From: Vulcanimicrobiaceae bacterium
GTDB lineage: Bacteria; Vulcanimicrobiota; Vulcanimicrobiia; Vulcanimicrobiales; Vulcanimicrobiaceae
Length of the DNA: 44,512 nt
Assembly (NCBI GenBank): GCA_050733775.1
Contig: JBOHTT010000242.1
Coordinates: 1-44,512 of the forward strand
Reading direction: 5' to 3'
Every line of letters begins with the position of its first letter. Position 1 is the first letter of the stretch. Below the pieces are notes generated by a model. It searched no databases and was not told the DNA's origin. It was given only the letters and a program-made list of their open reading frames with translations. Shown here one piece after another: positions 2 to 38,509 of the stretch. Made by a program: the position numbers and the translations under genes.

Positions 2-1294
2 TCCAGCTACAATCTCGACTGGACGCACGGCTGGCGCGGCGGCCAGCTCACGATCGACGCGTACCGGCAAAATCAAAGCGGCCAGACAATCAACGGTTAT
101 ATCAATGCTCTTGGCGAGCCGCCGGGATACTTGCCCGGCGGCTACCTTTATGAGTTGCAGATCGCATGGTCGCAAGCGTCCGTGTGCGGCGCCGCGTCGT
201 TTTTGCCGGTCGGCTTTTACGTCAACCAGCCGATCAGCGGCACGACGCGGCTCTATCAAGGCATCGATGCCAGCGCGCGCATTCAGCTCGGCCCGAACGT
301 CGTGCTGCTCCCGACGTATGCGCTCAACGTCGCGACGCTCGTCGCCGCCGATGCGCGCTTTGCCGTTCCCGGCTCCGTCCTGATCGTCGGCTCGCAGCTT
401 CCCGGCCATCCCATTCATCGCGCAGCGCTGACGGCCGACGTTCTGGTGCCGAAAACGCGCCTCGAGCTTCTGCTGTCGGGCCAATACACCGGCTCGAACA
501 ACAACCGCGAGCTCGCGCCGTTTACGACGGTTGCCGCCGGTCTTTCGCATCCGCTCGGCCCCGGTCACCTTACGCTGTTCGCGACGAATCTGTTCAATAC
601 GGAAGCCGGCACGTTTTCGACGCTGCAATTCGCGCAGCCGATTCCGCTCGCGGGCGGCGGCGTTACGTCATTTGCGGCGTATCCGTTGCCGCCGCGCACG
701 TATAACATCAGCTACACGTTTGCGCTCGGCAAAGGGGCGACGGCGAGCTCGACGCTCGAAGAGCAAGCGCAGGAAGCTTCGCGCGCCAACGTCGCACCGT
801 CCGAACCCGGCGGACCCGGCTCCGGCACCGGCATGGGTGGACCCGGCGGTCCAGGGTCAGGGACCGGCGGCGGGCGCTTCCGCAACGTGCTGCCGCAAGG
901 CGGCGATCCGTTCGCGCTCGCGCGCAATGCAAACTGCACCGAGCAAGCGCAAGACACCGCGCGGCCGGTGCTGCAGATGATGCGCGATTACGTGAAGGCG
1001 TACGAAGCGCGCCAGCCGCTTCCGCAGACGCCGAATTTCACCGTGACCGCACATCCGGGTTCCACGCCGCCGTACTGGCTCGACTTCGAGCCAACCGATC
1101 TGCAATCGAGTCCGCTCGCGGGCCGCGTGCGTTACATCTTCGCGTGCGCGTACGTTGCGATCTTGACGCCGCAGCAAGCGCAAGACCACGGCATTACGAC
1201 GGACAAAGGCGTGTTCTTCGGCTACGCACCGGGAGTCGGCATCTTCCGCGTGTTACCGCGCGAGCTGCCCTCCGGCGGCGGCCAGGTGCGCTAA
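2..1294 (+). CDS. TonB-dependent-receptor-like outer-membrane beta-barrel, C-terminal portion (5' end outside window), with a ~185-aa non-barrel C-terminal extension
   Basis: The frame is open from base 2 (SSYNLDWTHGWRGGQLTIDAYRQN...). It shows the alternating amphipathic beta-strand pattern typical of TBDT barrels, ending PRTYNISYTFALGKG near base 732. A Gly/Pro-rich tract (GPGSGTGMGGPGGPGSGTGGG) and ~150 more residues follow. The 131 ATG in the ORF track is internal. Confidence 0.55.
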   Translation, partial: SSYNLDWTHGWRGGQLTIDAYRQNQSGQTINGYINALGEPPGYLPGGYLYELQIAWSQASVCGAASFLPVGFYVNQPISGTTRLYQGIDASARIQLGPNVVLLPTYALNVATLVAADARFAVPGSVLIVGSQLPGHPIHRAALTADVLVPKTRLELLLSGQYTGSNNNRELAPFTTVAAGLSHPLGPGHLTLFATNLFNTEAGTFSTLQFAQPIPLAGGGVTSFAAYPLPPRTYNISYTFALGKGATASSTLEEQAQEASRANVAPSEPGGPGSGTGMGGPGGPGSGTGGGRFRNVLPQGGDPFALARNANCTEQAQDTARPVLQMMRDYVKAYEARQPLPQTPNFTVTAHPGSTPPYWLDFEPTDLQSSPLAGRVRYIFACAYVAILTPQQAQDHGITTDKGVFFGYAPGVGIFRVLPRELPSGGGQVR

Positions 1295-1443: not shown

Positions 1444-2319
1444 TCACCCGGAATCTAGGCCGCCGAGCGCAGGGGAAAATCGGCTCGTAGATTGACTTCG
1501 AGCTGCGTCTGCAAACTCTTTCGGTGTTTTGTTAGCCAGCATTGAGTGCGGTCGGAAGATATTGTACTCTTGGCGCCAAATCCGCGCAGCTCGACGAACG
1601 TCTTCGATGGTTTCGAAGTAGGATGGATTCAAAAGTTCCCGGCGGACACCGCCGTTAAACGATTCGATGAAAGCATTATCGGTCGGCTTTCCCGGGCGAG
1701 AAAAATCTAAAGTCACCTTGTTCCAGAATGCCCATTGATCCATGGGCTGAGCAACGAATTCGGCGCCATTATCGCACCGCAGCATTTTCGGAGCGGCTCG
1801 CTCTCTTGAAACACGCTGAAGCACTTTGACGACGTCGTTGGAACAGAAACGAGGAGCGACCTCGAGAGCAACGCATTCGCGCGAATAAACATCCAGAACC
1901 GTCAAGAGCCGGTAGGAGCGGCCGTCGGATAGTCGATCGTGCATGAAGTCCATCGCCCAAAGCTCGTCGACCATTTGAGGAACGAACCGCTCCGATCGCG
2001 GAGTTGCTGCTCGCCGGCGATGTGGCATTTTTGCCCGTAAACTAAGGCCTTCCAAGGCGTAGAGACGGTAGACGCGTTTGTCGTTGATCGCAAACCCCTC
2101 ACGGCGCAGAAGCACGCTAATGCGGCGGTATCCATAGCGAACGCGAGCTGCGGCGATTTCCTTGATACGCTCACGCAAGATGCCGTTGAGCGGACCAGCT
2201 TTCGATTTGCAGTAGTATGTTGCGCGATTAAGCTGGATGAGATCGCACGCTCGACGTATCCCAACGCCGAAGGTGCGCACCAGAAAGCCGACACGCTCGC
2301 GCTGCTGAGCCGGCTTCAC
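1444..2319 (-). CDS. IS3-family transposase OrfB (DDE/rve integrase core)
   Basis: Contains WAMDF..., LRCDNGAEF and TDNAFIESFNG (D, D, E region of the rve domain). A GTG start overlaps the orfA stop, and the stop lies inside the terminal IR. Confidence 0.9.
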   Translation of the reverse strand: MKPAQQRERVGFLVRTFGVGIRRACDLIQLNRATYYCKSKAGPLNGILRERIKEIAAARVRYGYRRISVLLRREGFAINDKRVYRLYALEGLSLRAKMPHRRRAATPRSERFVPQMVDELWAMDFMHDRLSDGRSYRLLTVLDVYSRECVALEVAPRFCSNDVVKVLQRVSRERAAPKMLRCDNGAEFVAQPMDQWAFWNKVTLDFSRPGKPTDNAFIESFNGGVRRELLNPSYFETIEDVRRAARIWRQEYNIFRPHSMLANKTPKEFADAARSQSTSRFSPALGGLDSG

Positions 2320-2585
2320 AGTTTTTTTGCGATGATCTCCTGAAGCATCTTGCGATCGAGACTGAGATCAGCGACGATCTGCTTGAGCTTGGCGTTCTCT
2401 TCACGCAACTGCCGCAGCTCGCGAACTTCTGGCGTTCCCAAGCCTCCATAGCGCCGCCGCCAAATGTAGAACGTGTTCTCGTGGATCCCAAGCTTGCGAA
2501 CGATCTCGGCCACCGGCGTGCCGGCCTCGGCTTGCCGTAAAGCGGTCGCGATTTGATCCGGGGAGTGACGTTTTCGCACGGGCAA
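2316..2585 (-). CDS. IS3-family transposase OrfA (HTH plus leucine-zipper-like region)
   Basis: MPVRKRHSPDQIATALRQAEAGTPVAEIVRKLGIHENTFYIWRRRYG... is the typical IS3/IS911 OrfA N-terminus. A coiled-coil LRQLREENAKLKQIVADLSL follows. Confidence 0.9.
   Translation of the reverse strand: MPVRKRHSPDQIATALRQAEAGTPVAEIVRKLGIHENTFYIWRRRYGGLGTPEVRELRQLREENAKLKQIVADLSLDRKMLQEIIAKKL
2322..2328 (-). promoter_or_regulatory. Programmed -1 ribosomal frameshift site (A AAA AAA) joining orfA to orfB
   Basis: The minus strand reads gcA AAA AAA ctg tga. A -1 slip continues as ACT GTG AAG CCG, which is the orfB frame (TVKPAQQ...). Confidence 0.75.
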
Positions 2586-2960: not shown

Positions 2961-3746
2961 CTAGTCCGCTGAGATTATCGTGCCGACGTCTTCGCCGGCG
3001 AGGGCGCGCGTCACCATGCCGGGTTTGAGGCCGTTGACGATCTGCAGCTCGCGGCATGCGCGTGCGCGCGGCAGATACTCGATGACGACGCGCTCTAAGA
3101 TAAGATCCTGAAGATCGCGCCGCAACAGCTCGCGCGCGCCGATTCGCGGGATGAACCGCGCGGACGGATTCTTCTTGGGGTCGTCATCGTAGAGTCCGTC
3201 TTCGTCTTTGACGAAGATGGCGCGCTTCACGCCGAGCACTTCCGCGGTCAGAAAAACGCCGGCATCGGTGCGATGGCGAGGAATGCGCCCGTTCTCGGTC
3301 GGCTTTTCCCAGTAGCCGAACGGCGGCATGCCGGTCATGATGGGGATGCAGCCCATGTTGAAGTAGAGCGGCAGCTTCTCGAAATCGTCGTGCAGCATAA
3401 AAATGCCGCCGTGCTTGGCGAGCAGCATCTGCAGCATCCGCGCGTTCTGGCGCGGCACGTATCCGCCGAGCGCTGCGAGCACGCCGGTCGGCAACTCGAG
3501 ATCGGACGCCATCGCGTAGATGTGCCGCGCGCGCGTCCCGCCGCCGCAGCAAAGCAATAATTTGTGGCGATCCTTGGCCGCAACGATCTCGTCCAATATC
3601 GGGAAGAGCGCCGAACGACCGCGATCCATGATCGACTGCCCGCCGACCTTGAGGACCTTGACGTCCGGGATCATCGCGACCGCGTCATAATTCAGCCGCG
3701 GTGCGTCACCGGTGAGCGACGCTTCGCCGAGAGCGCTCGCGATCAC
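2961..3746 (-). CDS. Molybdenum storage protein (MoSto) beta-like subunit, amino-acid-kinase fold
   Basis: From memory, it matches Azotobacter MosB motifs: KVGGQSIMDRGR, GGGTRARH, IFVKDEDGLYDDDPKKNPSARFIPRI, NGLKPGMVTRALAGEDVGTIISAD. The start is uncertain. GTG 3746 lies 7 nt after the upstream stop; alternatives are ATG 3806 (overlapping) and ATG 3674. Confidence 0.7.
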   Translation of the reverse strand: MIASALGEASLTGDAPRLNYDAVAMIPDVKVLKVGGQSIMDRGRSALFPILDEIVAAKDRHKLLLCCGGGTRARHIYAMASDLELPTGVLAALGGYVPRQNARMLQMLLAKHGGIFMLHDDFEKLPLYFNMGCIPIMTGMPPFGYWEKPTENGRIPRHRTDAGVFLTAEVLGVKRAIFVKDEDGLYDDDPKKNPSARFIPRIGARELLRRDLQDLILERVVIEYLPRARACRELQIVNGLKPGMVTRALAGEDVGTIISAD

Positions 3747-3753
3747 ACGGCGG

Positions 3754-5763
3754 CTATGCACCGGCGGCCGCTGCCTCGAGCGAGAGAACGCTGGGCACGT
3801 CGCCATGCCGCAGGATCACCGTTCCGACATCTTCGCCTGCAAGCGCGCGTGTCAGCTCGCCCGGCTTCAAGCCGTTCACGATCTGAATGCGCTCGACGTG
3901 ACGCGACGTCTTCCATGCATCGAAGAGCTGACGATCGAGGATGAGCTCCTCCGGCATGTTTGCGAGCAATTCCGGCAGCGTGGTGCGCCGGATTAGCTGC
4001 GCGTCGGCGTGCTTCTTCGGATCTTTGTTGTACAGCCCGTCTTCGTCTTTTACGAAGATGATGCGCCGCATGCCGAGCACTTCCGCGTGGATGAACAATC
4101 CGAAATCGGAACCGTGCGTCGGGAGGGGGCCTTCCTCCGGCGGCGGTTCCCAAAAATGATAGGGCGGAATCGAGATGACGATCGGCAGCATGCCGCCGTC
4201 GAGATAGAGCGGCAGCTCCCAAAAGTGCTCGCGCTGCATGACGATCGAACCCTTTTGCGCGAGCAGCGCGTTGAGGAAGATCGCGTTGGCTTCCTCCATT
4301 GCGCCGATCAGCTGCGCGATGCCGCCGGTCGGCAAACCGAGATCGACCGCAATCGAGATCGTGTGACGCACGCGCGTGCCGCCGCCGACACCGACGATGA
4401 TCTTGTGCTTGCGATGCAATTCGCCGAGCTCGGCAGCGAGCGGTATCACGGCGGTACGCCCACGATCGAAGATGGATTGTCCGCCGATACCGAGGAGCGT
4501 CACATCCGGTAAGATCGCGAACTCATGCTCTGATGCGGTCTTGGCGATGACTTTGCGGTCGACGAGCGACTCCCGCATGAGCGGCGAGGCAATATGCGTT
4601 CGACCGTCGTCGGAAACGAGCTGGCTCATAACGGGGGCAGGTACGCTCGACTTACCGGAAAGACCTTGCATTGCCCGGACCAAGTGGTAGGTGACGTAGC
4701 CGGACGCGAGGCCGAAGAACGTGTGCACGGCGAATCCCGGTATTAAGATTACGTAAGCAAAGGCGGGGGCGATTGCGATGGCCGTCATCGCTAAAATCGT
4801 CGTGAAGCGTGCCGCGCCGATCACACCGCCGAGAATTGTCCATGCCAAAGGGCCCGTGCGATTCGGGTTGCGTGCCATAAACGGAACGCATATATCGCAA
4901 ACGACGCCGGGTGTGACGTGCTTGACGATCTCGAAAATTCCGAAGCGGCCGTCGCCCATCATGAACGCCGCGGTTCCCATGACCAGGCCCGTGAGCGTCG
5001 CACCAAAACGCGAGCGCGTCTTTAGCGCGGCAATGATGTAGAGCGGCGTAAGTATGACGAGCTTGTGTCCGGGCGCAAACGGAATGCTCGGCAAAATTTT
5101 CAACGCGCGAATGCCGAGCATCGAAAGCGCCATGCCGGCGATAACCGCGGCATCGTGTCCGGCGGCGCCGTGCGTTGCTGCGAGATATTCTTCCGCGCGC
5201 GCGATTTGCGAATCGATGCGGCGAACGATCGGCGACACTTCGCCGCGCGCGAGTTTTCTCGCGGACTCCCAAAAGCTTTCGTGCGGTTGCTCGTCTGCGC
5301 CGCCGCGTCCGCCACCGGTTCCGCGTCCGCCGCCCATCCCGCGACCGCCACCGCCGCCTTGCGCGACGAGCGTCAACACCGCGTCGATGCACGCGGAGAT
5401 CAGCACCGGTGCGCCGAGTTTCTGCAGTCCGGAGGCGATCGCGCGCGGATCGCCCGCTCGCGCAATTTGCGATGCGAGAATAATGGAGAGAATGCGCAGC
5501 GTCATGAACGCGCCGTCGATAGCACTTGCGACGCTCCAGCCGGTGATCGCGTACGTCACGATCAGAAAACCGGCAAAGCTCGCAAACTTCACCAGCTGGC
5601 GTAAGAATGCGCGCGGCGTGAGCCCGACCGCGAACCAGAGCGCCACCTGCACGAGCAGTACCGCAACGATCGCCGTAGGCGCGTGGACGAAGAACACGCC
5701 GACTGCGACGGCGAGAAGGTAAAGAATGCGTAAGCGGGGATCGAGATCGAACTGCCGGACCAT
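3754..5763 (-). CDS. Fusion protein: N-terminal polytopic membrane module (~aa 1-365, CbiQ/EcfT-like start) plus C-terminal MoSto alpha-like amino-acid-kinase domain (~aa 385-669)
   Basis: A single uninterrupted 669-aa ORF. The N-terminus has DPRLRILYLLAVAVGVFF and about 10 hydrophobic helices, split by GGGGGRGMGGGRGTGGGRGG. The C-terminus is a paralogue of the next gene (GIGGQSIFDRGR, GGGTRVRH, IFVKDEDGLYNKDPKK, NGLKPGELTRALAGEDVGTVI). Confidence 0.75.
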   Translation of the reverse strand: MVRQFDLDPRLRILYLLAVAVGVFFVHAPTAIVAVLLVQVALWFAVGLTPRAFLRQLVKFASFAGFLIVTYAITGWSVASAIDGAFMTLRILSIILASQIARAGDPRAIASGLQKLGAPVLISACIDAVLTLVAQGGGGGRGMGGGRGTGGGRGGADEQPHESFWESARKLARGEVSPIVRRIDSQIARAEEYLAATHGAAGHDAAVIAGMALSMLGIRALKILPSIPFAPGHKLVILTPLYIIAALKTRSRFGATLTGLVMGTAAFMMGDGRFGIFEIVKHVTPGVVCDICVPFMARNPNRTGPLAWTILGGVIGAARFTTILAMTAIAIAPAFAYVILIPGFAVHTFFGLASGYVTYHLVRAMQGLSGKSSVPAPVMSQLVSDDGRTHIASPLMRESLVDRKVIAKTASEHEFAILPDVTLLGIGGQSIFDRGRTAVIPLAAELGELHRKHKIIVGVGGGTRVRHTISIAVDLGLPTGGIAQLIGAMEEANAIFLNALLAQKGSIVMQREHFWELPLYLDGGMLPIVISIPPYHFWEPPPEEGPLPTHGSDFGLFIHAEVLGMRRIIFVKDEDGLYNKDPKKHADAQLIRRTTLPELLANMPEELILDRQLFDAWKTSRHVERIQIVNGLKPGELTRALAGEDVGTVILRHGDVPSVLSLEAAAAGA

Positions 5764-5878: not shown

Positions 5879-8800
5879 TTACCACTCCAGTTTTTCGAGT
5901 GCCCGGACGACGCAATGCGTGTCGCGCGTCAAGATGCCGATCGGTCCCCAGTAGTTGAACCCGTACGTCCACTGTCCGTAGCCGCCGGCTAATTGCAGCG
6001 GATTGATGCGTGTTCGCGTAAGGCTATTGTGACCGCCGGCGCGCCTGCCGCCGCGAATTTGCGACTTCGGCATCGAGATCGTGCGATCGGGGGCGTGATA
6101 GATCATGCACGTTCCCGGTTGCACGCGCGCGCTTACGGCTGCGCGCGTGACCATGACGCCGTTGTCGTTGTAGACCTCGACCCACTGATTGTCGACGATG
6201 CCGATCTTCGCCGCATCCTTGTCGTTGATCCAACACGGCTCCATGCCGCGCGACAGCGTGAGCATGCGGAGATTGTCGTAGTAGGTCGAGTGGATGTGCC
6301 ACTTGCCGTGCGGCGTGATGTAGTTCAGGATCAACGACCTGTCGTCGACAGGGCTGTTGACGATGTCGCCGGTCAAGTGCGGGTCGAGCTTCGGCTTGTA
6401 CGTCGGGAAGTTCTCGCCGAAGTCGATGTACCAAGGATGATCCATGTAGAACTGCTCGCGGCCGGTAACCGTGCGCCACGGGACGAGCATGTCGACGTTG
6501 ATGCACCACGCCGAGTACGCGCGGCCATCGTTGATCATGCCGGTCCAGCACGGACTGATGAGCAATCTGCGGACTTGCCTCGTAAGGTCTCCGAATGTCG
6601 TCCGGGCTCCGCGGATCCCCTCCGCAAGCTGCGTGAGCGGAAGCCCGGTGACGTGTTCCTCATGCTCGAAGCCGGAGTACGAGACGTCGCCGTTCGTTTC
6701 GGGCGCGAGGTGGAGGATCGTGTTGCAGACGTCGAGCGGATCGTCGAGGCTCGGGTACTTCTTCCCGTCCCACTCGACGCAACGCAGTTTGCGCGAATCG
6801 GGTGAGATCGAGACCGGCGCTTCGAGCATCTGATCGTAGAATTTTGCGACGTCGATTTGCACGCCGTTGAAGCTAATCCCGTCGGATTTGACGTTCGGTC
6901 CGAGTGTGATGTATTTGTTGTAGATTTGCCGATAGTCGCGCTCGAGGACGCGCAAGTGCGGCATCGTTTTGCCCGGAATCGCTTCGCACTGACCATCCCA
7001 CCAGTTGAGGACTTGCGGCTGCGCGCACTCATCCGGCGTGTCGTGCTGCAACGGGAACGAGTTGATGTCTTTAACCGGCGCGGGGAAGACGAGCGGCGCC
7101 AGCTCGCTCACCTTCTTGGCGAACGTCTTGAAGATGTCCCAATCGCTCTTCGACTCCCACACCGGCGGCACGGCTTGGCCGAGCGGGTGGATGAACGAGT
7201 GCAGGTCCGTGGAGTTCAGGTCGTTCTTCTCGTACCACATCGCCGTCGGCAGAACGATGTCGGAGTAGAGTGCCGACGTGTCCATGCGGAAATTGATGTC
7301 GACGACGAGATCGAACTTGCCGCGCGGCACGGGCTCGCGGAACTTCACGCGCTTGACTTTGTCCCGCGCATGCTCTTCGGCAACCGCGTTGTCGTGCGTG
7401 CCGAGGTAGTGCCGCAGGAAGAACTCGTGGCCTTTGGCGCTCGCCATGATGGCGTTGCCGCGCCAGATGAACCACACGCGCGGCCAGTTCTCGGGCGCGT
7501 CCGGATCTTCGACCGAGAATTTCAATTTGCCGGACTTGATTTGGTCGGTCGCCGCTTTGACGATGTCGGCGTCCGTCTTTGCACCGGATTCTTGCGTCTC
7601 ACGCACCCAATCCAGCGGGTTGCGGTTGAACGCAGGATAGTGCGGCATCCATCCGCGCTTCACGGAGTCGCAGAAGATGTCCATCGCATGGCCCTTTGCA
7701 AACTTCGCATCGGGCGGCACGGATGAATACTCCGTGAAGTCGCCTTCGTAGCGCCACATGTCGCCGTTTGTGTAGTGCCAAACCGGCGACTGCGTGCGGC
7801 GGGGTGGCTTCTGCCAGTCGAGCGCAAACGCAATTGCGGACCACGGAGCGGCCGGCGCAAGCTTTTCTTGGCCGACGTAGTGGTTCAGACCGCCGCCGTT
7901 GACGCCGCAGCAGCCCGTGAACATCATCGCCGTGATCGGTCCGCGATAGCTGAGACCGTTGTTGTACCAATGGTTGAGGCTGGCGCCGGTGATGCACATC
8001 GAGCGGCCGTTGGTGTGCTCGGCGTTGGTTGCGAACTCGCGCGCGAAGCGAATGACCGTGTCGCGGCCGATGCCGGTGTACTGCTCTTGCCAGGCCGGCG
8101 TGTACGGCATCTTTTCGTCGTTGTAATCCTTCGGATAATCGCCGGGCAGGCCGCGGCCGACGCCGAAGTGCGCGTTGAGCAGATCGAAGGTCGTCGTGAC
8201 GGGAATGCGTTGCCCGTCTTTCGTCTCGATGTACTTGATCGGCACGCCGCGCAAGGACGTCTTACGCGACGCGAACTCGAAGAATTCGACCTGCGCGACC
8301 TCGTCACTATTGTTGAGGAAGCTCAGTGCGGGATCGATCCGGCTTCCGTCCTTGCCGTCCTCGAGCTTGAGGTTCCACTGCCCGGCTTTCTTCTGCCATC
8401 GGTGACCGGCGAAGCCCATCGGCATCTTTGGCGCGCCGGTTTGCTGATCCCACATCAGCATCTTCCAATCGCCGAGCTCCTCGTCGGCGTACTTTGCGAT
8501 GCGGTTCGCGCGGAACAGTTGACCGGGTTTGAGACCCTTCGTGCCTTTCGTCAATTCGATCAGCAACGGCGCGTCGCTGTACTGCTTGACGTACTTGTCG
8601 AAGTACGGCACTTTACGATCGAAGTGATACTCTTTGAGGATAACGTGGTTAACTGCGACCCATAAGGCCGTGTCTTGGCCTGCTTTGATCGGGATCCACA
8701 TATCCGAGTACTTGGCAACTTGGTTGAAATCGGGCGAGATCACGACGAACTTCGAGCCGTTCGCGCGCGCCTCGGAAATGAAGTGCACGTCGGGCGTGCG

Positions 8801-9529
8801 CGTCATGTTCAGGTTCGCCGCGATCGACACGATATACGACGAGTTGTACCAGTCGGCACCCTCGCACACGTCGGTCTGGTCTCCCCACACTTCGGGGAAC
8901 GAATTCGGCAGATCGGCGTACCAATCGTAGAAGCTCATGTTCACGCCGCCGATGAGCTGCAGGAAGCGCGCGCCACCGGCGTACGATGCAAACGAGAACG
9001 CAGGGATCGGCGCGAAGCCCATGATGCGATCGGGGCCGTACGTCTTTGCGGTATATAATGAGGCGGCGGCGATTAGCTCGGTCGCCTCGTCCCACGTGCT
9101 GCGTCGATAGCCGCCCTTGCCGCGCGCGCGCTGCCAGCGCTTGCGCTTGGTCTCGTCTTGTACGAGCGAGCCCCAAGCCTCGATTGGGTTGTTGTGTTGA
9201 GATTTCGCTTGCCGCCAAAAATCGAGCAGCTTACCGCGAATGTACGGATACTTGACGCGAATGGGGCTATAGACGTACCACGACGCCGAAATGCCGCGCT
9301 GACATCCGCGTGGCTCGTACGGCGGAAGACCTTTTTCGAGCAGCGGATAGTCGGTCTGCTGCATCTCCCACGTGATGATGCCGTCCTTGACGTAGACCGC
9401 CCAAGAACAACCACCCGTGCAATTGACGCCGTGCGTGCTGCGCACGACCTGATCGTGCTGCCACCGGTTACGGTAGAATTCTTCCCAGCGACGAGACTTC
9501 GGATCGACCAGGTCCTGAATCCATCCCAT
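5879..9529 (-). CDS. narG: Respiratory nitrate reductase alpha-subunit-type molybdoenzyme (NarG/NxrA-like, DMSO-reductase family type II)
   Basis: 1216 aa. The N-terminus [43 protein letters not shown] carries the H-x3-C-x3-C FS0 motif, with EPRGC downstream. FYDWYADLP matches the E. coli region holding the Mo-ligand Asp. A GAGGA RBS lies upstream. Confidence 0.9.
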
Positions 9530-13342: not shown

Positions 13343-14212
13343 TTGACCCTCGGGAACCCTGATCCTAAATATCGCCGTCGTCTCCTCATCGCGCTCGCCC
13401 TCGCAGTTGCTGTCCACGAGATTGTGATCGGAGCGGGCGGATTTTTGCGTTTTCCCGAAGCGCGCGAGCCGTCGTCGCCGCAGCGCGTGATCTTGATCGA
13501 GCGTCGCGTTGCGGTCGTGACGCCCGCGCCGACACCGACGCCGACCGCGCCCCCGCGCGTGACACCCGCACCGAAGCGTGCCGTCGCAGCACCGCGCGCG
13601 ACGATGCTTGCGCGTACGCGAAGCGGCGGCTCGCGCGGCGGACCAAAGCTGGAAATTCACACGCCGAAGCTCGTGCATCACAATACGCCGATGCCGGTCG
13701 TTCGCGCGACGGAACAACCGTCAAAGAAGCTGATCGCGCAGACGGGTAGCGGCGCAACGCCTGCGCCCGGAATCGGCAGCTCCTCGGGAATCGGAACGGG
13801 GCAAGGCGCAGGTGCCGGCAGCCAGCAAGGCCCCGGAGGCGGGACGGGCGGCACCGGAAGCGGTTCGCAAAATTCCGACGCGCCGTGCGGCGAGCCGCTC
13901 TTCTACGGCTTGCACGCACAGTTCAATCCCAAAGACGGCAGCTTTGATGAGGCGGTCCGGGTTCAACTGCGACTGTCCAACGGACAAACGGTCACCGGTG
14001 AGTTTCACTATCCGTGGCACTATGCAAGCGAGCGCGAAAACCCGTTCTCCCCGAACTACGGCGGCAGCCCCGACGACGCCATTCCCGCCAAACTTCCGCC
14101 GCCGGGCTTCGACCTCTCCAAGGAGCCGCTCGCGGTGCAGTTGACCTTGCAAAAGACCTTGCCGAACGGCAGGACGCTGTTCCAGCCTTGCCCGACCGCA
14201 AAGGTGCCGTAA
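13343..14212 (+). CDS. Membrane-anchored Pro-rich/Gly-rich protein with TonB-like layout
   Basis: N-terminal TM LLIALALAVAVHEIVIG, then a Pro-rich spacer TPAPTPTPTAPPRVTPAPKR, a Gly-rich tract and a ~110-aa C-terminal domain. The TTG start is uncertain. Confidence 0.5.
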   Translation: MTLGNPDPKYRRRLLIALALAVAVHEIVIGAGGFLRFPEAREPSSPQRVILIERRVAVVTPAPTPTPTAPPRVTPAPKRAVAAPRATMLARTRSGGSRGGPKLEIHTPKLVHHNTPMPVVRATEQPSKKLIAQTGSGATPAPGIGSSSGIGTGQGAGAGSQQGPGGGTGGTGSGSQNSDAPCGEPLFYGLHAQFNPKDGSFDEAVRVQLRLSNGQTVTGEFHYPWHYASERENPFSPNYGGSPDDAIPAKLPPPGFDLSKEPLAVQLTLQKTLPNGRTLFQPCPTAKVP

Positions 14213-14256
14213 AGCACACAGTCCCATACGCTTGCTTGCCGAAGATAGAGACTGAT

Positions 14257-14931
14257 ATGTTTGCGGACCTCATCGATTGGTTCGGCTCGCGCACCCAAGA
14301 AAAACGCGAAGCGCCACGGACGCGGCAGCCGTTCAAAGTCGCCTTTTCGACGAACGGCGTGACGTGGAATCAGGCCACGGGCATCGATATCGGGGTCGGC
14401 GGTATCTCCGTCTTATCGGCGCAGGGGTTTCACAAGACGGAGCTCGATTTCAAGCTGACGATCGAGCGCCGCGAAATCCCCTGCCGTGTCGCGGTCATTC
14501 GTCACGAAGGCGCGATCCAGCAAGGCAGAAAGCTGCACAAGTACGGCCTGAGGTTCGTCTCGATGAAAAAAGACGATCAGGACGCCGTGATGCGCTGGCT
14601 GCACGGCAAGCCGCTCGAGCCGGTCAATCGTGCCAAAGAAGAGCTGACGGCAGTTCGCATGGCGCCCGACGACGTCGCGCGGCTGTTTCCGAAAGCCGTG
14701 CAAGCGCGATTGCATGACGAGCTCATCAATCGGCACCGGCTCGCGCCGCACAAACACAAGCACGAACCGTTGGTTGCGTACTACTACGGTGGCGCGACGA
14801 TGGTCGCGGACAAACGGCTGCATCGGCTGACGATCGAATCGAAGGTCGTTCACCACGATCACACGGAAGCTCGATTCCGCACCCGTTTCGCATTCGACGA
14901 CAACGGAAGCGAGATTACGGTTCTAGACTAG
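14257..14931 (+). CDS. PilZ-domain protein (paralogue 1)
   Basis: REAPR (RxxxR) and DIGVGG (DxSxxG with Ser replaced by Gly). Its C-terminal half is homologous to the neighbouring gene. ATG 14257 is preferred over the 14014 extension, which overlaps the previous CDS. Confidence 0.7.
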   Translation: MFADLIDWFGSRTQEKREAPRTRQPFKVAFSTNGVTWNQATGIDIGVGGISVLSAQGFHKTELDFKLTIERREIPCRVAVIRHEGAIQQGRKLHKYGLRFVSMKKDDQDAVMRWLHGKPLEPVNRAKEELTAVRMAPDDVARLFPKAVQARLHDELINRHRLAPHKHKHEPLVAYYYGGATMVADKRLHRLTIESKVVHHDHTEARFRTRFAFDDNGSEITVLD

Positions 14932-15647
14932 GTCTTCTCCGGAATCTGCTGCTCCATCGGAATCGTCACGATGCGTGCCAGCTTGTCGTCGAAATACAGC
15001 TGGGTGACGTAGTTGTTGACGCTGTGCGGGTGCACGACGCGAGACTCCACGCGAAGGGCGTGCATCTCCAGACCCTGCCGCTGCGTCTTTCCGAGATAGC
15101 GCAACTTCACGAGCGGTTCGGTACCTGAGTTCATCGGGGCGAGGCGCTTCATCTTCACAAGCTCGCCGAGCAAGCGCTCCAGCGCCGCCTTCGGCAGCAA
15201 TCGCGCGGCGTCGTCGGGACGCGCCTGTAACTGCGTGAGATCGAGCGTCAATCGATCGTTGGCCTTCACCGGCTGGTTTTGCACGAATCGTGCCAGCGCG
15301 TCCCAATGATCGGAGGTAATGCCGACGAACTTACCGCCGACGCGCCATGCATTACCGCCGCGCAGCTTACCAGGGACGGAGTCCCCGGCCTTTTGTACCA
15401 GTGCGGTCACCGTATGCTCGTCGAGCGTCAAGAGCACCATAAACTCGTCATGCGTGACCTCGTCGTTCGTCAGAATGCCGAGGCCGCCGACGCTGATGTC
15501 GACCGCGAGCGCGGGCAGCAACGTGGTGCCGCGATCCAGCGAATACTGAACCTTAAAAGGCTTTTTCACACGAGGGTGTGCGCGCTCGACGTGACCGCGT
15601 TTCTTGTTACGGTCGGAACCGAAAAAAGGCACTGGCAAAAACCGCAC
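14928..15647 (-). CDS. PilZ-domain protein (paralogue 2)
   Basis: RAHPR (RxxxR) and DISVGG (DxSxxG). The C-terminal region PDDAARLLPKAALERLLGELVKMKRLAP...LRVESRVVH parallels paralogue 1. Confidence 0.75.
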   Translation of the reverse strand: MRFLPVPFFGSDRNKKRGHVERAHPRVKKPFKVQYSLDRGTTLLPALAVDISVGGLGILTNDEVTHDEFMVLLTLDEHTVTALVQKAGDSVPGKLRGGNAWRVGGKFVGITSDHWDALARFVQNQPVKANDRLTLDLTQLQARPDDAARLLPKAALERLLGELVKMKRLAPMNSGTEPLVKLRYLGKTQRQGLEMHALRVESRVVHPHSVNNYVTQLYFDDKLARIVTIPMEQQIPEKT

Positions 15648-15754
15648 CCGTTGAGTGTGGCGGGGAAGCCTGCAGTTTCGGCTGCGTACCGTCCGCCCCC
15701 CTGCCCGGGCAGATAAAAAGGCGGAGTACGGCCCCGACCGATAGTTATTCCATA

Positions 15755-17605
15755 GTGACCATCTCGACGCGCCTCTGGTTATCGGCGGCGGTTTCTCTTA
15801 TTGCCTTGGTGGCCTTTTGTGCTGCGCTCGTCGCCGAGCTGGGCGTGGCTCGAACGGCCGACGCAAACCGGGCGAATGCACGGGAGACGATTGGTGCGGC
15901 ACGCGCCGTTCTTTCTCTGCTGAAGGACCTGGAGACGGGTTCGCGCGGATTTGCGCTCACCGGCCAAGACCGCTATCTCGAGCCGGTGGCGGCCGGGCGC
16001 AAAGCACTGCCTGACACACTGCGCTCGCTGACGGAGCTCACGAGACTTGCGGATCGGCAAACGCGCGACGACGTCTTCACCCTCGAGCGGCTCGTGGTTC
16101 GAAATAACGCCGACATCGATCAGACCATCGCGTTGCGCCGTCATGGAACGAGCTCGTCTGACGTGCCGGTTGCGGCACTCGATCGAGGGAAGCGCGATAT
16201 GGATTCCGCGCGCGGCCTGGTCGCGAGAATCGACGAGCGCGTCCGGAACCGTCTTTCGGAAATCACCGCCGAGCTCGAGCGGACTCGCAACGCCTTGCTC
16301 CTCATCGTGCTCGGGGGCGCCGGCTTCGTCGCGTTCGTCGTCATCACGGCGACGGCACTGTCGCTGCGCGCTTTCGGCGCGCGATTGACTCGCTTGCAGC
16401 GCGCGCTCAACGATACAGGCCGCATTGGCGGCGGCAACGAGCTCATCGATACGGACGAGGCGGATTTCTCCGGCGTCGCGTCGGCGTTCAACGATATGGC
16501 GATTCGCCTGTCGAGCGAAGAGGTGCGGCGCGACGAGGCCGAGCGCAGCTTGCAGGTACTCAACGAATCGCTTACCTCGAAAGCGTCGGAGCTCGAAAGA
16601 TACTCGAGGACGGTGAATGTCGTTCGCCGCATGGCGGACCGGCTGCCCAGCTGCACCGACGAAGAAGAATTTTCAGCCGTCATTCGCAGCTTCGCACCGC
16701 AGCTCACAGGCGGGCGCGCCGGGGTGTTGTACTTGCTGAACAATTCGCGAAACTTGCTGCACGCGGGGTCGACCTGGGACAGCCCGGCGTCGAGTCTTGA
16801 CGAATTCACGCCGGAAGAATGCTGGGGGCTTCGCCGGGGACAAGAGCACGTCAGCGGCACAGGCCAAGTTGAGGTGACGTGCCCGCACATCGTGCAGAAC
16901 GGCAAGACGCATTGGTGCATGCCGCTGATCGCACAAAGCGAAACGGTCGGCTTACTGTATTTGGAGGGCGTCCCGCAAGAGAACGTCGACCACTACTCGC
17001 AAGACGAAGACGTCACGTACATGCTTCGCGAAACCGTCGCCCTGGGTCTCGTCAACCTGCGCTTGCGCGAAAAGCTGCAATCGCAGTCGGTCCGCGATCC
17101 GCTGACGGCGCTCTTCAACCGCCGCTATCTCGACGAATCGTTGGAGCTGGAATTCGCGCGAGCGATTCGTTCCGAGGAGCCGATCGCGGCCATCATGCTG
17201 GATATCGATCACTTCAAGAAATTCAACGATACCTTCGGACACGATGCAGGCGACGTGGTACTCAAAGAAGTTGCCGCCGTGCTCGCGCGCTCGACGCGCA
17301 AAGGCGATATTGCCGGACGCTTTGGCGGCGAAGAATTTCTTCTGATAATGCCGGGCGCCGACGCCGAGCGAGCGCTCACGCGAGCAGAAGCGATGCGCCG
17401 CGGAATCGCGTCTATCGACCTTCGCTTCGGAACTCAGCCGCTCGGACGCGTCACGGCGTCGTTCGGCGTTGCGATCTTTCCGACGGACGGCGACACGAGA
17501 GAAACGCTATTACACGCCGCCGATCAGGCGCTCTACGCGGCGAAGGCAGCCGGCCGCGACCGAGTGACTGCAGCCGCGTACGGCGGCACCGTCGTAAACG
17601 GCTAG
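15755..17605 (+). CDS. Diguanylate cyclase, CHASE3-HAMP-GAF-GGDEF
   Basis: N-terminal TM plus a CHASE3-like region (SLLKDLETGSRGFALTG). A second TM and a HAMP-like region follow, then a GAF-like middle. The GGDEF domain has active-site GGEEF and I-site RKGD five residues upstream. GTG 15755 was chosen because the 15578 ATG lies inside the divergent PilZ gene. Confidence 0.8.
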   Translation: MTISTRLWLSAAVSLIALVAFCAALVAELGVARTADANRANARETIGAARAVLSLLKDLETGSRGFALTGQDRYLEPVAAGRKALPDTLRSLTELTRLADRQTRDDVFTLERLVVRNNADIDQTIALRRHGTSSSDVPVAALDRGKRDMDSARGLVARIDERVRNRLSEITAELERTRNALLLIVLGGAGFVAFVVITATALSLRAFGARLTRLQRALNDTGRIGGGNELIDTDEADFSGVASAFNDMAIRLSSEEVRRDEAERSLQVLNESLTSKASELERYSRTVNVVRRMADRLPSCTDEEEFSAVIRSFAPQLTGGRAGVLYLLNNSRNLLHAGSTWDSPASSLDEFTPEECWGLRRGQEHVSGTGQVEVTCPHIVQNGKTHWCMPLIAQSETVGLLYLEGVPQENVDHYSQDEDVTYMLRETVALGLVNLRLREKLQSQSVRDPLTALFNRRYLDESLELEFARAIRSEEPIAAIMLDIDHFKKFNDTFGHDAGDVVLKEVAAVLARSTRKGDIAGRFGGEEFLLIMPGADAERALTRAEAMRRGIASIDLRFGTQPLGRVTASFGVAIFPTDGDTRETLLHAADQALYAAKAAGRDRVTAAAYGGTVVNG

Positions 17606-21831: not shown

Positions 21832-22548
21832 CTATAAGTCGAACGCGCTCCGAACGACCGGTGCGAAGTTGCGGCTGACGGGCACTTCCGAACGGGTTCG
21901 ATCGTCCACCCGTATGACGTAGGTGCCTCCCAGAAAGCCGTTTACCTCGACGACGTGCCGCGGGTTGACGATATAGGCGCGATGCACGCGCAGGAAGCCG
22001 TGGCGTTCCAAGCGCGTCGCGCACTCGCCGAGCGGTCCGCGAAAGCGGTAGGACTGATCGAACAGCTTCACCGTGACGATATGATCGCGCGCTTCCACAA
22101 AACGAATGTCCTCGATGCGCAGGAGCAACGTGCGTCCTTCATCGACCACCGGCAAACGCGCGTGTTCCGCCTGTTCCGGTTTTTTCTGCTCCGGTTGCGA
22201 ATGCAGGCGCCGCAGCGTATCGGTCAGTCGTTCCTCGCTCACCGGCTTGAGCAGATAGTCCGATGCTGCCACGTCGAACGCGCTTAGCGCGTAGTCGGGA
22301 TATGCCGTTACGAATACGACGTTCGTACGCTTCGGCAAGCGATTGATCACGGCCGCGGCATTGAGTCCGTCGAGACCCGGCATGCGGATGTCGAGAAAGA
22401 CCACGTCGAATTGCGCGTTTTGCAGCAAGGCCAGCGCTTCGACTGCGCTTTCGGCTTCCTCCACTTTCCAATCCGGCGCAACCCGTCCGAGCGTATAGAC
22501 GAGGTCCTTGCGGACGACGGGTTCGTCGTCGACGACGAGCGCTCTCAC
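21832..22548 (-). CDS. LytR/AlgR-family response regulator (REC + LytTR)
   Basis: ALVVDDEP...FLDIRMPGLDG...LKP receiver, with a C-terminal LytTR region (FLRVHRAYIVN). The GTG start overlaps the kinase stop (GTGA). Confidence 0.85.
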   Translation of the reverse strand: MRALVVDDEPVVRKDLVYTLGRVAPDWKVEEAESAVEALALLQNAQFDVVFLDIRMPGLDGLNAAAVINRLPKRTNVVFVTAYPDYALSAFDVAASDYLLKPVSEERLTDTLRRLHSQPEQKKPEQAEHARLPVVDEGRTLLLRIEDIRFVEARDHIVTVKLFDQSYRFRGPLGECATRLERHGFLRVHRAYIVNPRHVVEVNGFLGGTYVIRVDDRTRSEVPVSRNFAPVVRSAFDL

Positions 22549-23660
22549 GGCTTGCCGTTTTTCGGACCCGAAATCGGAATCCAAAAGCGTGCCGTCGTTC
22601 CGAGGCCTTTGCGGCTCTCGATTTGCAAGCCGCTCGCAGGACCGAAAAGCCCGACGAGGCGCTTGTGCACGTTGCTGAGGCCCATGCCCAAACCCGAGCC
22701 GGTGCCTCGTTCCAAAAGGCGACGCTGTTGCGTCTTCGCGATGCCGACGCCGTTGTCGCTCACGCAAATCTCGAAGCCGCCGTCGCGCTCTTGCGCCGAA
22801 ATGCGCACGCAACCGACGCCACTCTTCGGCGCGATGCCGTGCACCATCGCGTTCTCCACAAGCGGCTGCACGGTCAGCACCGGCACGAGAAGCCGCCGCG
22901 CGCGATCGTCGATCTCGTGTTCGACCATCAACCGGTCGCCGAGACGCGCCTGCTCGAAGCGAAGATAGCGCTCGATGTAGTCGAGCTCGTCTTGCAGATG
23001 CATCAGCTCCCGGTGCTGGGAGAGCGTCTCGCGAAAGAAATCCGCGAAATCGACGATGAGGCTGTGCGCGCGCTGAGGATCCGTTCGCGTAAAACCGGCG
23101 ATCGTCGTGAGCGTATTAAAAAGAAAATGCGGAGAGATCTGCGCGCGCAGCGCCTCGAGCTCGGCGCGGGTCACGAGCGCGGCTCGCGCGTCCAGCTCCG
23201 CAAGCTCGAGGTAGACGCTAAACACTCGGGCCAGCGCGCGGGCGACAGTCTCGTCGCGGTCGATGATGACGCGACCACGCGAATGATACAGTTTGAGCGC
23301 ACCGACGACGCTGCCGCGGACGATCAGCGGCGCAACGAGCGCCGACTCGAGCGGACAGTCGTCGTTCGGACAGCCGATCTCGTCGCGATCCGAGGTTCGT
23401 GCGACTTCACCCGTTTCAAGCGCGTGCAGCGTGAGCGTCGTGATGTTCGGACGGCCGGCGCGATGATGATCCGAACCCGTTCCGACGAACGCCAGAATTC
23501 GATCGCGAGAAACTACTGCGGCCGCATCCAGGCGCAGACGCTCGTACAGCAAGCGCGCGGTGAACTTTGCGGAATCCGCACGCAAACCGCCGCGTAAATG
23601 CGGCAGCGCTTCTACAAGCAGATTGAGGACAGCGTCGTCTTGCGGAGCGGCAAGCACCAT
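22545..23660 (-). CDS. Soluble sensor histidine kinase, GAF + LytS/YehU-type His_kinase + HATPase
   Basis: ISPHFLFNTLTTIA matches the PF06580-type motif. The ATPase region has VENAMVHG and GSGLGMG. No hydrophobic N-terminal domain is present. Confidence 0.8.
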   Translation of the reverse strand: MVLAAPQDDAVLNLLVEALPHLRGGLRADSAKFTARLLYERLRLDAAAVVSRDRILAFVGTGSDHHRAGRPNITTLTLHALETGEVARTSDRDEIGCPNDDCPLESALVAPLIVRGSVVGALKLYHSRGRVIIDRDETVARALARVFSVYLELAELDARAALVTRAELEALRAQISPHFLFNTLTTIAGFTRTDPQRAHSLIVDFADFFRETLSQHRELMHLQDELDYIERYLRFEQARLGDRLMVEHEIDDRARRLLVPVLTVQPLVENAMVHGIAPKSGVGCVRISAQERDGGFEICVSDNGVGIAKTQQRRLLERGTGSGLGMGLSNVHKRLVGLFGPASGLQIESRKGLGTTARFWIPISGPKNGKP

Positions 23661-25279: not shown

Positions 25280-26100
25280 ATGTGCTCCGTCCATGGGCAG
25301 AAATACCGCTCGGCCGCAGATACGAGCGCAAAGAGTGAGTTGCCGAGTATCGACAGCAGGGCGATTGCGGCGAAAACGAGTGCGGTGCGCACGTTGGTCG
25401 ACATCGTGAGGATGAAGTAACCCAAGCCGCGGTCCGAGCCTACGAACTCGGCAACGACGGCGCCGATCACGGAAAGCGTCATTGCAACCTTCATCGCGCT
25501 GAAGACGTACGGCATCGACCACGGCAAGCGCACTTTCCAAAAAACTTTGAGCGTCGGCGCATTGAGCGAGCGCGTGAGCTCGAGGAGCTCGGGCTCGACG
25601 GATGCCATACCGGTCGACGTATTGATGATGATCGGAAAGAACGCGGTAATCATCGCAATGAGAACTTTAGAGGACGCACCGTAGCCGATCCACAGCAGAA
25701 TGAGCGGCGCGAGCGCGACCTTCGGCACGGACTGAAAGATGAGCAGGAGCGGCATCGTGACGCGGCGAGCGAGATTCGAATAGACGATGAGCACCGCGAG
25801 TGGGATGCCGACCGCGACGGCGAGCAAGAAGCCAAGCACGACTTCGTAACAGGTCACCCACAAATGGCCGGCGAGCACGCCGCGCCAGGCCCACGTCGCT
25901 TCGGCGATTTGACTCGGCGACGGCAAGAGATACTGCGGGATCTTTCCCGTGTCGCACAGCAGCTCCCAAATCCCGAGCAACGCCGCAAAGACGACGTACG
26001 GCAGCAGCACTTCGCCCCACGCCCGCGCTCGCGGCGTGCGCCGCTCAGCGCCGGACGGTTTGTGCGTTACCGGTAATGAGATTTCGGATTTCACTTGCAT
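25276..26100 (-). CDS. ABC transporter permease (NitT/TauT family)
   Basis: About 6 TM helices and a BPD_transp_1-like core. The annotated ATG overlaps the ATPase gene by 56 nt, so the start is uncertain. Confidence 0.8.
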   Translation of the reverse strand: MQVKSEISLPVTHKPSGAERRTPRARAWGEVLLPYVVFAALLGIWELLCDTGKIPQYLLPSPSQIAEATWAWRGVLAGHLWVTCYEVVLGFLLAVAVGIPLAVLIVYSNLARRVTMPLLLIFQSVPKVALAPLILLWIGYGASSKVLIAMITAFFPIIINTSTGMASVEPELLELTRSLNAPTLKVFWKVRLPWSMPYVFSAMKVAMTLSVIGAVVAEFVGSDRGLGYFILTMSTNVRTALVFAAIALLSILGNSLFALVSAAERYFCPWTEHI

Positions 26101-26824
26101 ACGTGCCGAACTTGGGTGTAGCGACCATTGCGAGCTCGCGCGGCCGCGGAAGATCGATCTCGAGGGACGCGACGATCCGGCCGGGGCGCGGCGACATCAC
26201 GAGGACGCGGTCCGCGAGCAGAACGCCTTCTTGAATGCTATGCGTCACGAAGAGGATCGTCTTGCGGCGTTCGCTCCAAATACGCAGCAGCTCCATGCCG
26301 AGCTCTTCGCGCGTCAATGCGTCGAGCGCGGCGAACGGCTCGTCCATGAGCAGTAAATGCGGATCGTAGATCAACGAGCGGCAAAGCGAAACGCGCTGCT
26401 GCATACCGCCGGACAGCTCGCCCGGATACGAGCGCTCGAAGCCGGACAGTCCGACCAGCTCGATCAGCTCTTGCGCGCGCGGGCGATATTCGCGCACGCT
26501 GCGCCCAAGCATTTCAATCGGAAACAGCACGTTGTCTATCACCGAACGCCAAGGTAAGAGCACCGGTCGCTGAAAGACGAGACCGATGCGCTCGGTCGGG
26601 CCCTCCATGCGCGCACCTTCGTAGAAGATCTCGCCGCTCGAGGGCGCGATGATGCCGGAGATGAGCTTCAACAGCGTACTCTTACCGCATCCGCTCGGGC
26701 CGACGATCGTCACGAATTCGCCGGCACCGAGGGACGTGGAAATATCGACGAGCGCGGTTACCTTCTCGCCAACCTTCGTCGAATAGACCATCCCAAGGTC
26801 GCGGATATCGACGACGGCGGCCAA
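26045..26824 (-). CDS. ABC transporter ATP-binding protein (NitT/TauT family)
   Basis: Walker A GPSGCGKS, signature LSGGMQQR, Walker B LLLMDEPF. Confidence 0.9.
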   Translation of the reverse strand: MAAVVDIRDLGMVYSTKVGEKVTALVDISTSLGAGEFVTIVGPSGCGKSTLLKLISGIIAPSSGEIFYEGARMEGPTERIGLVFQRPVLLPWRSVIDNVLFPIEMLGRSVREYRPRAQELIELVGLSGFERSYPGELSGGMQQRVSLCRSLIYDPHLLLMDEPFAALDALTREELGMELLRIWSERRKTILFVTHSIQEGVLLADRVLVMSPRPGRIVASLEIDLPRPRELAMVATPKFGTYASEIRNLITGNAQTVRR

Positions 26825-38134: not shown

Positions 38135-38509
38135 ATGCCCGACGCGTCTATCGGAAAGCGCATCCTCATCGTCGACGACGCTAGTACGACGCGCGTTCTG
38201 CTGCGCAGGCTGCTGGACGCGCAGGGTTTCATATGCCTTGAAGCTTCCAGCGGCGAACAGGCCGTCAAAGTTTTCCACGAGCAGCGCCCCGATCTCGTGA
38301 CGCTGGACATCCACATGGACCAGCTTTCCGGGATGGGGGTCATCCAAGTCTTGCTCAAGATCGATCCCAAGACCAGAATCGTCGTTATCACTTCTGAAAC
38401 CGAAAAGAGAATCATCGACCAGCTCTACAAGATGGGCGTCAAAGAGGTCGTGAACAAGCCGTTCCAGAGCGAGCGTTTTCATGAGGCTATCGCGCACGCA
38501 CTCGAGTAG
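38135..38509 (+). CDS. Stand-alone CheY-like receiver protein
   Basis: RILIVDDAS, DLVTLDIHMD and NKPF give the acidic pocket, phospho-Asp and Lys. 124 aa with no output domain. Confidence 0.85.
   Translation: MPDASIGKRILIVDDASTTRVLLRRLLDAQGFICLEASSGEQAVKVFHEQRPDLVTLDIHMDQLSGMGVIQVLLKIDPKTRIVVITSETEKRIIDQLYKMGVKEVVNKPFQSERFHEAIAHALE

Follow-up and report, generated by a model that had tools for sequence, protein, structure and literature searches.

What is a subunit of the molybdenum storage protein (MoSto) doing on the end of a membrane protein? The question is raised by a 44,512-nucleotide (nt) contig of a Vulcanimicrobiaceae bacterium (JBOHTT010000242.1, assembly GCA_050733775.1; this whole stretch is hereafter the window), in which a single open reading frame (ORF) joins a polytopic membrane module in frame to a MoSto-type subunit, with a free paralogue of that subunit encoded next door. 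A first-pass annotation had proposed this arrangement, including one uninterrupted ORF of 669 amino acids (aa), and both points were confirmed (Table 1). MoSto is an (alpha-beta)3 cage in which the loading of more than 100 molybdenum atoms needs ATP hydrolysis (PMC6448029), and a title in the reference list of that paper terms it a soluble ATP-dependent molybdate pump. The reading that we favour, at slightly better than an even chance, is that the fusion and the free subunit would form a membrane-docked, ATP-driven machine for the capture and storage of molybdate.

The fusion is not confined to the window. Among 5.8 billion proteins searched, full-length homologues measured 658-730 aa with 60-87% identity (P0002-P0006), and one more, of 767 aa, was 41% identical; homologous fusions make up about seven sequence clusters with more than 15 sequences from independent JGI, ENA, NCBI and Logan assemblies, on contigs that include one of 167 kb and one of 3.27 Mb. 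Each full-length fusion homologue is followed by an AA_kinase gene of 266-278 aa. There is also a second, divergent fused clade (P0016 and P0124); in an exhaustive representative search, P0124 (732 aa) matched both Pfam CbiQ (39.9 bits) and AA_kinase. At the junction, Met379 of the window protein ('PAPVMSQLVSDDGRTH') lies where the kinase gene of unfused relatives, which is separate, has its start codon ('MSKLVTDDGRTH'); in those relatives the membrane gene and this first kinase-fold gene (gene 1) overlap by ATGA and are read in different frames. The equivalent residue is Val in P0003 and Leu in P0006; the start codon has been replaced in these two, which therefore cannot arise from an internal start. 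Judged from these comparisons the fusion is genuine and in frame, and Met379 is the ancestral start codon of a formerly separate gene. The worry expressed in the first-pass annotation, that a frameshift or chimera might be hidden here, finds no support in relatives that carry the same fusion at 60-87% identity in independent assemblies, some of them with the ATG lost.

The C-terminal domain and the product of the next gene resemble MoSto far more closely than they resemble other amino-acid kinases. Pfam AA_kinase (PF00696) covers aa 422-601 of the fusion (E 4.8e-15), and aa 392-651 match MoSto beta (2ogx_B) with E 1.6e-63 and 218 bits and MoSto alpha (2ogx_A) with E 5.3e-47 and 164 bits. For the free subunit the corresponding values are E 5.7e-74 to beta and 2e-42 to alpha. 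UMP kinases reach 1e-5 to 1e-8 against both kinase-fold products, and isopentenyl-phosphate kinases about 1e-5 against the fused domain. The two domains are 47% identical to each other, and the kinase-fold subunits are 42-50% identical to MosB. The earlier suggestion that aa ~385-669 and the next gene form a MoSto-like pair therefore stands, and the competing assignment that it had left open, an ordinary UMP, aspartate or glutamate kinase, does not (E 1.6e-63 to MoSto vs about 1e-5 for UMP kinases). The start of the free subunit gene could lie at 3806 (longest ORF), at 3761 (an 8-nt overlap with the fusion, as in relatives) or at 3746 (261 aa, the NCBI call), of which 3761 or 3746 is likely.

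The same parts are widely found as separate genes. One genome per GTDB species was scanned, and in 134 of them the membrane module has a relative; 80 loci (L007-L086) were examined, with operon content assessed by tblastn, and 71 of these had enough downstream sequence to be informative. In 68 of the 71, the membrane gene, gene 1 and a second kinase-fold gene (gene 2) lie side by side, and none of these is fused. Overall, the three modules make up a nearly invariant operon that is kept in more than 100 species, often beside modABC. Almost all of the 80 loci come from Myxococcota (Polyangiaceae, Labilithrix, Haliangium, Kofleriaceae), with a few from Usitatibacter, one from Bradymonadia and one from Terriglobia. 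Pendulispora albinea and two metagenome-assembled genomes (L004-L006) likewise have the membrane gene followed by two AA_kinase genes with 4-nt overlaps; ModA-type genes come next in two of these three loci, and Pendulispora has a full modABC, the ModA and ModB of which exceed the NCBIfam equivalog cutoffs. Across the 80 loci, ModA was found downstream of the operon in 35-43 and ModB/ModC in about 32. The fused domain is 73-77% identical to gene 1 of unfused operons and the free subunit 74-82% identical to gene 2, and in a neighbour-joining tree the gene 1 and gene 2 clades each have a bootstrap value of 100. As the fused domain is the orthologue of gene 1 and the free subunit that of gene 2, the window ORF joins the first two genes of the operon, and on sequence comparison it is a rare fused form of a widespread three-gene operon. 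A wider look at genomes, which the first-pass annotation had recommended, thus yielded both fused relatives with their neighbours and the unfused operon. Two further MoSto-like representatives (P0122, P0125) are on contigs too short for gene context. About 2.1 kb is inserted between the membrane gene and gene 1 in L086, and the matches in L075 and L076 are fragmented and may be pseudogenes or masked sequence.

Which of the two subunits would take which place in a MoSto-like cage? MosA and MosB sequences were recovered from PDB alignments and the residue numbering was checked against PDB sequences. Like the Azotobacter vinelandii MosA/MosB pair (2OGX, 4F6T, 6GU5), the two proteins are paralogous amino-acid-kinase-fold subunits whose genes lie next to each other. 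Both kinase-fold domains are nearer MosB than MosA in overall score. The 'alpha-like' label that the first-pass annotation gave to the fused domain consequently fails as a statement of closest sequence relative (218 vs 164 bits), but it is acceptable as a functional label, since the signature positions favour an alpha-type role. Like MosB, the free subunit and its orthologues keep the catalytic K-x-G-G lysine, the glycine-rich loops, GGGTRARH, RTDAG, KDEDGLY and the beta-Met149 equivalent. In the fused (gene 1) subunit the K-x-G-G lysine is Gly or Ser (Gly in the window), which is unlike A. vinelandii MoSto, RTDAG has become HGSDFG and the beta-Met149 equivalent is lost; like MosA, it keeps the alpha-His156 equivalent (His536 of the fusion) and an alpha-like N-terminal arm, H-I-x-S-P-L-x-R-E-S-L-x-D-R. 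In MoSto, ATP and molybdate reportedly bind in beta, while the alpha N-terminal arm is said to lock the beta site and Met-beta149 to act as its gate. We favour a catalytic, beta-type role for the free subunit, and the lysine-less fused subunit fits an alpha position with a structural or gating role.

Two other routes to this assignment were rejected. Deep nodes of the neighbour-joining tree have bootstrap values below 50. Gene order gives no assignment either, as canonical loci have mosB before mosA, the reverse of the order here, both in A. vinelandii (PMC6448029) and in a canonical MoSto locus from our own set (L089, 1662-4860). That locus has a mosB-like gene (270 aa), then a mosA-like gene (277 aa, 473 bits to 2ogx_A) and no membrane gene; an IS110 transposase lies just upstream.

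A feature that sets the present unit apart from canonical MoSto, a soluble cytoplasmic protein that stores about 100 Mo or W atoms, is the 375-aa membrane module to which one subunit is fused or, in relatives, translationally coupled. About 110 of the matches in the search of 5.8 billion proteins are stand-alone proteins of about 400 aa that are about 50% identical to aa 1-375, and the module is very well conserved. An alignment of 113 relatives was used both for an AlphaFold 2 (AF2) model and for the conservation counts given below. The model of aa 1-375 is a helical membrane module with 14 helices (predicted local distance difference test (pLDDT) 86, predicted template-modelling score 0.84), and together with a computed hydropathy profile it gives the fused subunit at least 10 transmembrane helices. 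[quoted passage not shown] The window protein matches NCBIfam TIGR02454 (CbiQ) over aa 7-119 (E 0.0018, 18.1 bits against a cutoff of 111.8), and Pfam CbiQ (PF02361) matches 71 of the 113 relatives, several of them above the 25-bit gathering score (38 and 39.9 bits), with all matches confined to profile positions 7-145 of 216. When the family profile was run against PDB sequences, it found EcfT (4hzu_T, E 4.7e-4; the 4HUQ EcfT, about 5e-4) and no S-component. These results bear out the first-pass view that the first ~135 aa are CbiQ/EcfT-like.

Two conserved motifs lie in the coupling-helix-like region of this half. The segment 'SFWESARKLARG', which comes after a Gly-rich insert, holds Ala172-Arg173-Gly174; among the relatives the first position is A, G or S in 99/113, the second R or K in 100/113 and the third G in 113/113. 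On the next helix is a second motif, x-R189-A, the Arg of which is present in 106/113. Ala-Arg-Gly is the motif that typifies EcfT and that docks the ATP-binding cassette (ABC) ATPases in the canonical protein (PMC11109136). The insert corresponds to a loop, aa 137-163, that would be cytoplasmic. In the consensus of all 113 relatives the EcfT-like coupling helix is broken by a Gly-rich segment, which is therefore not a frameshift artefact. P0124 has a second Gly-rich linker, ahead of its kinase-fold domain.

The second half of the module is of another kind. Foldseek with the whole membrane model gave weak matches (E 0.5-3), with EcfT chains among the top ones mixed with S-components, a result that was resolved by modelling aa 199-376 separately (pLDDT 88, six helices). 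The best PDB matches of this model were S-components only, with probabilities of 0.92-1.00 and template-modelling (TM) scores of 0.49-0.69; they include 5edl (E 0.035, probability 1.00), ThiT 4tkr (TM 0.56-0.61), RibU 5kbw (TM 0.61-0.66) and the S subunit of the complete transporter 4HUQ (4huq_S; TM 0.64/0.69, root-mean-square deviation 4.1 Å), whereas TM scores for other proteins did not exceed 0.36. A six-helix membrane fold is common to all solved S-components. Weak but collinear matches to PF09605/TIGR02185 (MptD family putative ECF transporter S component) were obtained for 13 of the 113 relatives and for the window protein (E 0.0033). The first-pass annotation had described about 10 hydrophobic helices; that the protein is polytopic was correct, and the second half, which had been left anonymous, has the ECF S-component fold by Foldseek. 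An AxxxA motif in helix 1 of S-components docks on EcfT (PMC11109136); the window protein has A205-x3-A209 at this position, but residue 205 is Val in most relatives, and the pattern that is conserved among them is A206-x3-G210. Taken together, the sequence matches and models make the membrane part an ECF-type module in which T and S share a single chain.

Conservation within the membrane protein is highest in the S-like domain, which has at least 20 invariant residues, many of them charged; the invariant polar motifs among the 113 relatives are PFAPGHK, GDG[RK]YG, FE..KH..PG..CD and R319. Our own count of Lys and Arg in the loops between AF2 helices (positive-inside rule) puts both termini, the coupling helices and the Gly/Arg loop on the cytoplasmic side, and with this assignment the invariant motifs and R319, with their invariant His, Lys, Arg, Glu and Asp residues, fall in the outer half of the S-like domain. 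S-components bind their substrates in the outer half, and we infer that an oxyanion site lies in this domain.

Table 1. Features of the window, with positions numbered from its first nucleotide.
Feature	Position	Strand	Basis or remarks
Whole fusion ORF (ECF T-like and S-like membrane module, MoSto-type subunit)	3754..5763	(-)	ATG start, 669 aa, no interruption
EcfT/CbiQ-like scaffold, aa 1-198	5170..5763	(-)	Four transmembrane helices, then coupling-helix-like helices with Ala172-Arg173-Gly174 and Arg189
Disordered Gly/Arg-rich loop, aa 137-163 (GGGGGRGMGGGRGTGGGRGG), in coupling-helix region	5275..5355	(-)	pLDDT <50
Six-helix domain with ECF S-component fold, aa 199-372	4648..5169	(-)	AF2 (pLDDT 88), Foldseek
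Junction and conserved N-terminal arm of MoSto-type subunit, aa 373-415 (DDGRTHIASPLMRESLVDR...)	4519..4647	(-)	Comparison with unfused operons; arm aligned with MosA/MosB
MoSto-type amino-acid-kinase-fold domain (gene 1 orthologue), aa 416-669, with short C-terminal tail	3757..4518	(-)	PF00696; match to PDB MoSto
Free MoSto-type subunit (gene 2 orthologue), beta-type	2961..3761	(-)	2ogx_B match; start uncertain
narG, respiratory nitrate reductase alpha (Mo-bis-molybdopterin guanine dinucleotide enzyme), full-length	5879..9529	(-)	TIGR01580, 1411 bits (cutoff 1084)
IS3-family insertion sequence (orfA 2316-2585, orfB 1444-2319)	1444..2585	(-)	HTH_Tnp_1, rve, rve_3
Three ABC ATPase genes	26045-26824; 35112-35852; 38481-39287	(-); (+); (+)	Taurine/nitrate/sulfonate type and GlnQ type

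In the window, narG lies directly upstream of the fusion on the same strand, and the order narG, fusion, free subunit is also found in L001-L003. A promoter and terminator scan gave a promoter-like site only upstream of narG (9620-9593) and no excess of terminators, and the three head-to-tail genes are probably in the same transcription unit. No narH, narJ or narI was found beside narG or among the large ORFs of the window, and neither a molybdenum cofactor riboswitch nor any other RNA element was found in the window or in six related loci. L001-L003 have a divergent MarR gene upstream of narG. Directly downstream of the free subunit gene, the IS3-family element forms the unit's boundary and does not belong to the machine; it is absent from the equivalent spot in L001, which runs straight into a CarboxypepD_reg/Plug outer-membrane gene, the C-terminal part of which seems to correspond to window positions 131-1294 (+). 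Signalling genes unrelated to the fusion abound in the remainder of the window (15578-17605 (+), 14014-14931 (+), 22545-23660 (-) and 41135-43165 (-)); they encode a CHASE3-GGDEF cyclase, a PilZ protein, and two histidine kinases, one with GAF and the other a PAS hybrid that has two receiver domains. The CarboxypepD_reg neighbours had suggested an acidobacterial origin, which was rejected because proteins that cluster at 90% identity or more with the window's RelA, NarG and LeuA bear the names Vulcanimicrobiaceae or Candidatus Eremiobacterota.

The Myxococcota operons have conserved, extracytoplasmic-looking genes without a Pfam family upstream (L004 2944-7918; L005 4025-7946; about 46-49 of L007-L086). 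The set comprises a lipoprotein-like gene of about 395 aa, one that carries a MYXO-CTERM sorting signal (about 600 aa), a gene of about 326 or 265 aa and often a cytochrome-c-like gene of 183 aa; L004 and L005 also have a TonB-dependent receptor. These genes may be the outer part of the same molybdenum acquisition locus.

How might such a protein work? We propose that the two kinase-fold subunits would build a MoSto-like (alpha-beta)3 cage, and that three T-S modules would fix the alpha face of this cage to the membrane through the N-terminal arms of the alpha-type subunits. The last helix of the S-like domain is predicted to run straight into this arm. The S-like domain would bind molybdate or tungstate, and ATP hydrolysis in the beta-type subunit would power entry of the oxyanion into the cage, on the pattern of the soluble 'molybdate pump' of A. 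vinelandii, with either the tethered alpha-type arm or the Ala-Arg-Gly helices as the candidate coupling element. Binding by the S-like domain together with ATP-driven loading would couple uptake or capture at the membrane directly to storage, and in the window genome the store would serve NarG, the likely client encoded just upstream.

A number of observations count against this proposal. The window protein itself has no Pfam CbiQ match at E<1, and its S-like domain scores below the curated S-component family cutoffs (17.6 bits against 76.45 for TIGR02185), as do the PF09605 matches of this domain (11.9-18.9 bits against 28.7). The conserved Ala-Arg-Gly motif could point to an unlinked EcfA/A' pair as the motor. 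An adjacent modABC makes a second importer look redundant, and L068 and L074 have the membrane gene without a kinase pair within 6 kb downstream. We take alpha-Glu129, alpha-His140 and alpha-His156 to be the polyoxomolybdate ligands of MoSto; in the alignment with MosA/MosB the first two are kept in neither subunit, the Glu129 equivalent being Gln in the fused and Leu in the free protein and the His140 equivalent Tyr in both, and as these residues are not conserved the chemistry of the cage may differ or storage may be absent. In MoSto the polyoxomolybdate is covalently ligated by His and Glu (PMC6294228).

A bolder form of the proposal, which we put forward tentatively as a possible but rather unlikely outcome, is that the unit would represent a new class of primary transporter, in which an ECF-type T-S module is powered by a hexameric MoSto-type ATPase cage in place of ABC ATPases, and a single coupled step drives molybdate from the periplasm to a polyoxometalate store inside the cell. 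The resemblance to ECF transporters (4HUQ, 4HZU, CbiMNQO) extends beyond the EcfT/CbiQ-homologous half with its Ala-Arg-Gly and the S-component fold to the presence of four modules, namely T, S and two different cytoplasmic nucleotide-binding subunits. Unlike those transporters, the present unit has T and S in one polypeptide, a Gly/Arg-rich loop that interrupts the coupling helix and no match to the last third of the CbiQ profile, and its cytoplasmic partners are kinase-fold proteins of the MoSto type. An ECF system for molybdate is not known to us, nor did literature searches reveal one.

Another possibility, which we regard as unlikely, is that the T-S protein is transport-inactive and anchors the MoSto-type cage beside ModABC, which alone would transport. 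ModABC, a periplasmic binding protein with a type I ABC importer and thus of unrelated architecture, has the same presumed substrate and in Myxococcota shares the genomic neighbourhood; about half of the loci have modABC immediately after the operon, uptake and storage are treated as independent processes in A. vinelandii (PMC6448029), and an S-like domain below all family cutoffs would suit a passive role. A mere anchor, however, would not be expected to have its S-like domain as its most conserved part, with charged invariant residues in the predicted outer half, and the window, L087, L088 and many loci of Myxococcota have the unit with no modABC nearby.

Less probable again is a conventional ECF system, in which the T-S protein would be energized by EcfA/A' encoded elsewhere and would import molybdate or another micronutrient, with the MoSto pair as acceptor. 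Sharing of modules encoded at other loci does occur in group II ECF systems, and the Ala-Arg-Gly signature is conserved here as in canonical EcfT, where it is the ABC ATPase dock (PMC11109136). Against this, the only ABC ATPase found within +/-6 kb in the 80 loci is ModC, always beside ModB, whereas known ECF systems encode the T component together with the A components. The three ABC ATPases of the window, none of them near the fusion, are of the taurine/nitrate and GlnQ types and none is EcfA-specific, and the covalent fusion is to a kinase-fold subunit and not to an ABC domain.

We consider it improbable that the unit is no metal store at all and that the kinase-fold pair phosphorylates an imported small molecule (metabolic trapping), its likeness to MoSto reflecting ancestry only. 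The absence of alpha-Glu129 and alpha-His140 would be in keeping with such a role, as would a fold common to UMP and isopentenyl-phosphate kinases, but the matches to MosB (44-50% identity, with E 1e-63 to 1e-74 vs about 1e-5 for UMP kinases), the retention of the beta-Met149 and alpha-His156 equivalents and the recurrence of modABC and narG as neighbours argue for MoSto. Finally, an assembly or frameshift artefact that joined two separate genes can be set aside with near certainty: a single-base error could fuse genes that overlap by 4 nt in differing frames, as in the unfused operons, but with a fusion that recurs in about seven clusters and more than 15 sequences from several assembly sources, the 3.27-Mb contig included, a conserved junction, an ancestral ATG that is gone in some relatives and a second divergent fused clade, this is very unlikely.

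The component families of this unit are known and their combination is undescribed. No paper that connects MoSto with a membrane protein or with ECF components came up in literature searches, nor did any description of a T-S fusion of this architecture, and molybdenum and amino-acid kinases both go unmentioned in a 2024 survey of the S-component fold. The remark in the first-pass annotation that no membrane-embedded MoSto has been described thus agrees with the searchable literature. Automated annotation gives the pieces as 'molybdenum storage protein' and 'hypothetical protein / EcfT'.

Work on MoSto over decades has treated it as an Azotobacter peculiarity. In the literature it is a soluble ATP-driven 'molybdate pump' for which essentially no relatives are known (PMC6448029). 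The present analysis adds a large branch of the MoSto family that is hard-wired to a membrane protein made of ECF parts, found in more than 130 species-level genomes, mostly of Myxococcota, with fused forms in Vulcanimicrobiaceae/Eremiobacterota and a covalent link in the window. A supposedly soluble metal store thus seems to have a membrane-docked form. The proposal offers a model, concrete and open to test, of how and at what point molybdate would enter the MoSto store, as well as a candidate function for a conserved 'hypothetical protein/EcfT' gene, and it raises the possibility that an ECF-type translocator may be driven by a non-ABC ATPase. It bears on the supply of molybdenum for nitrate reductase in soil bacteria, and on the engineering of molybdenum storage.

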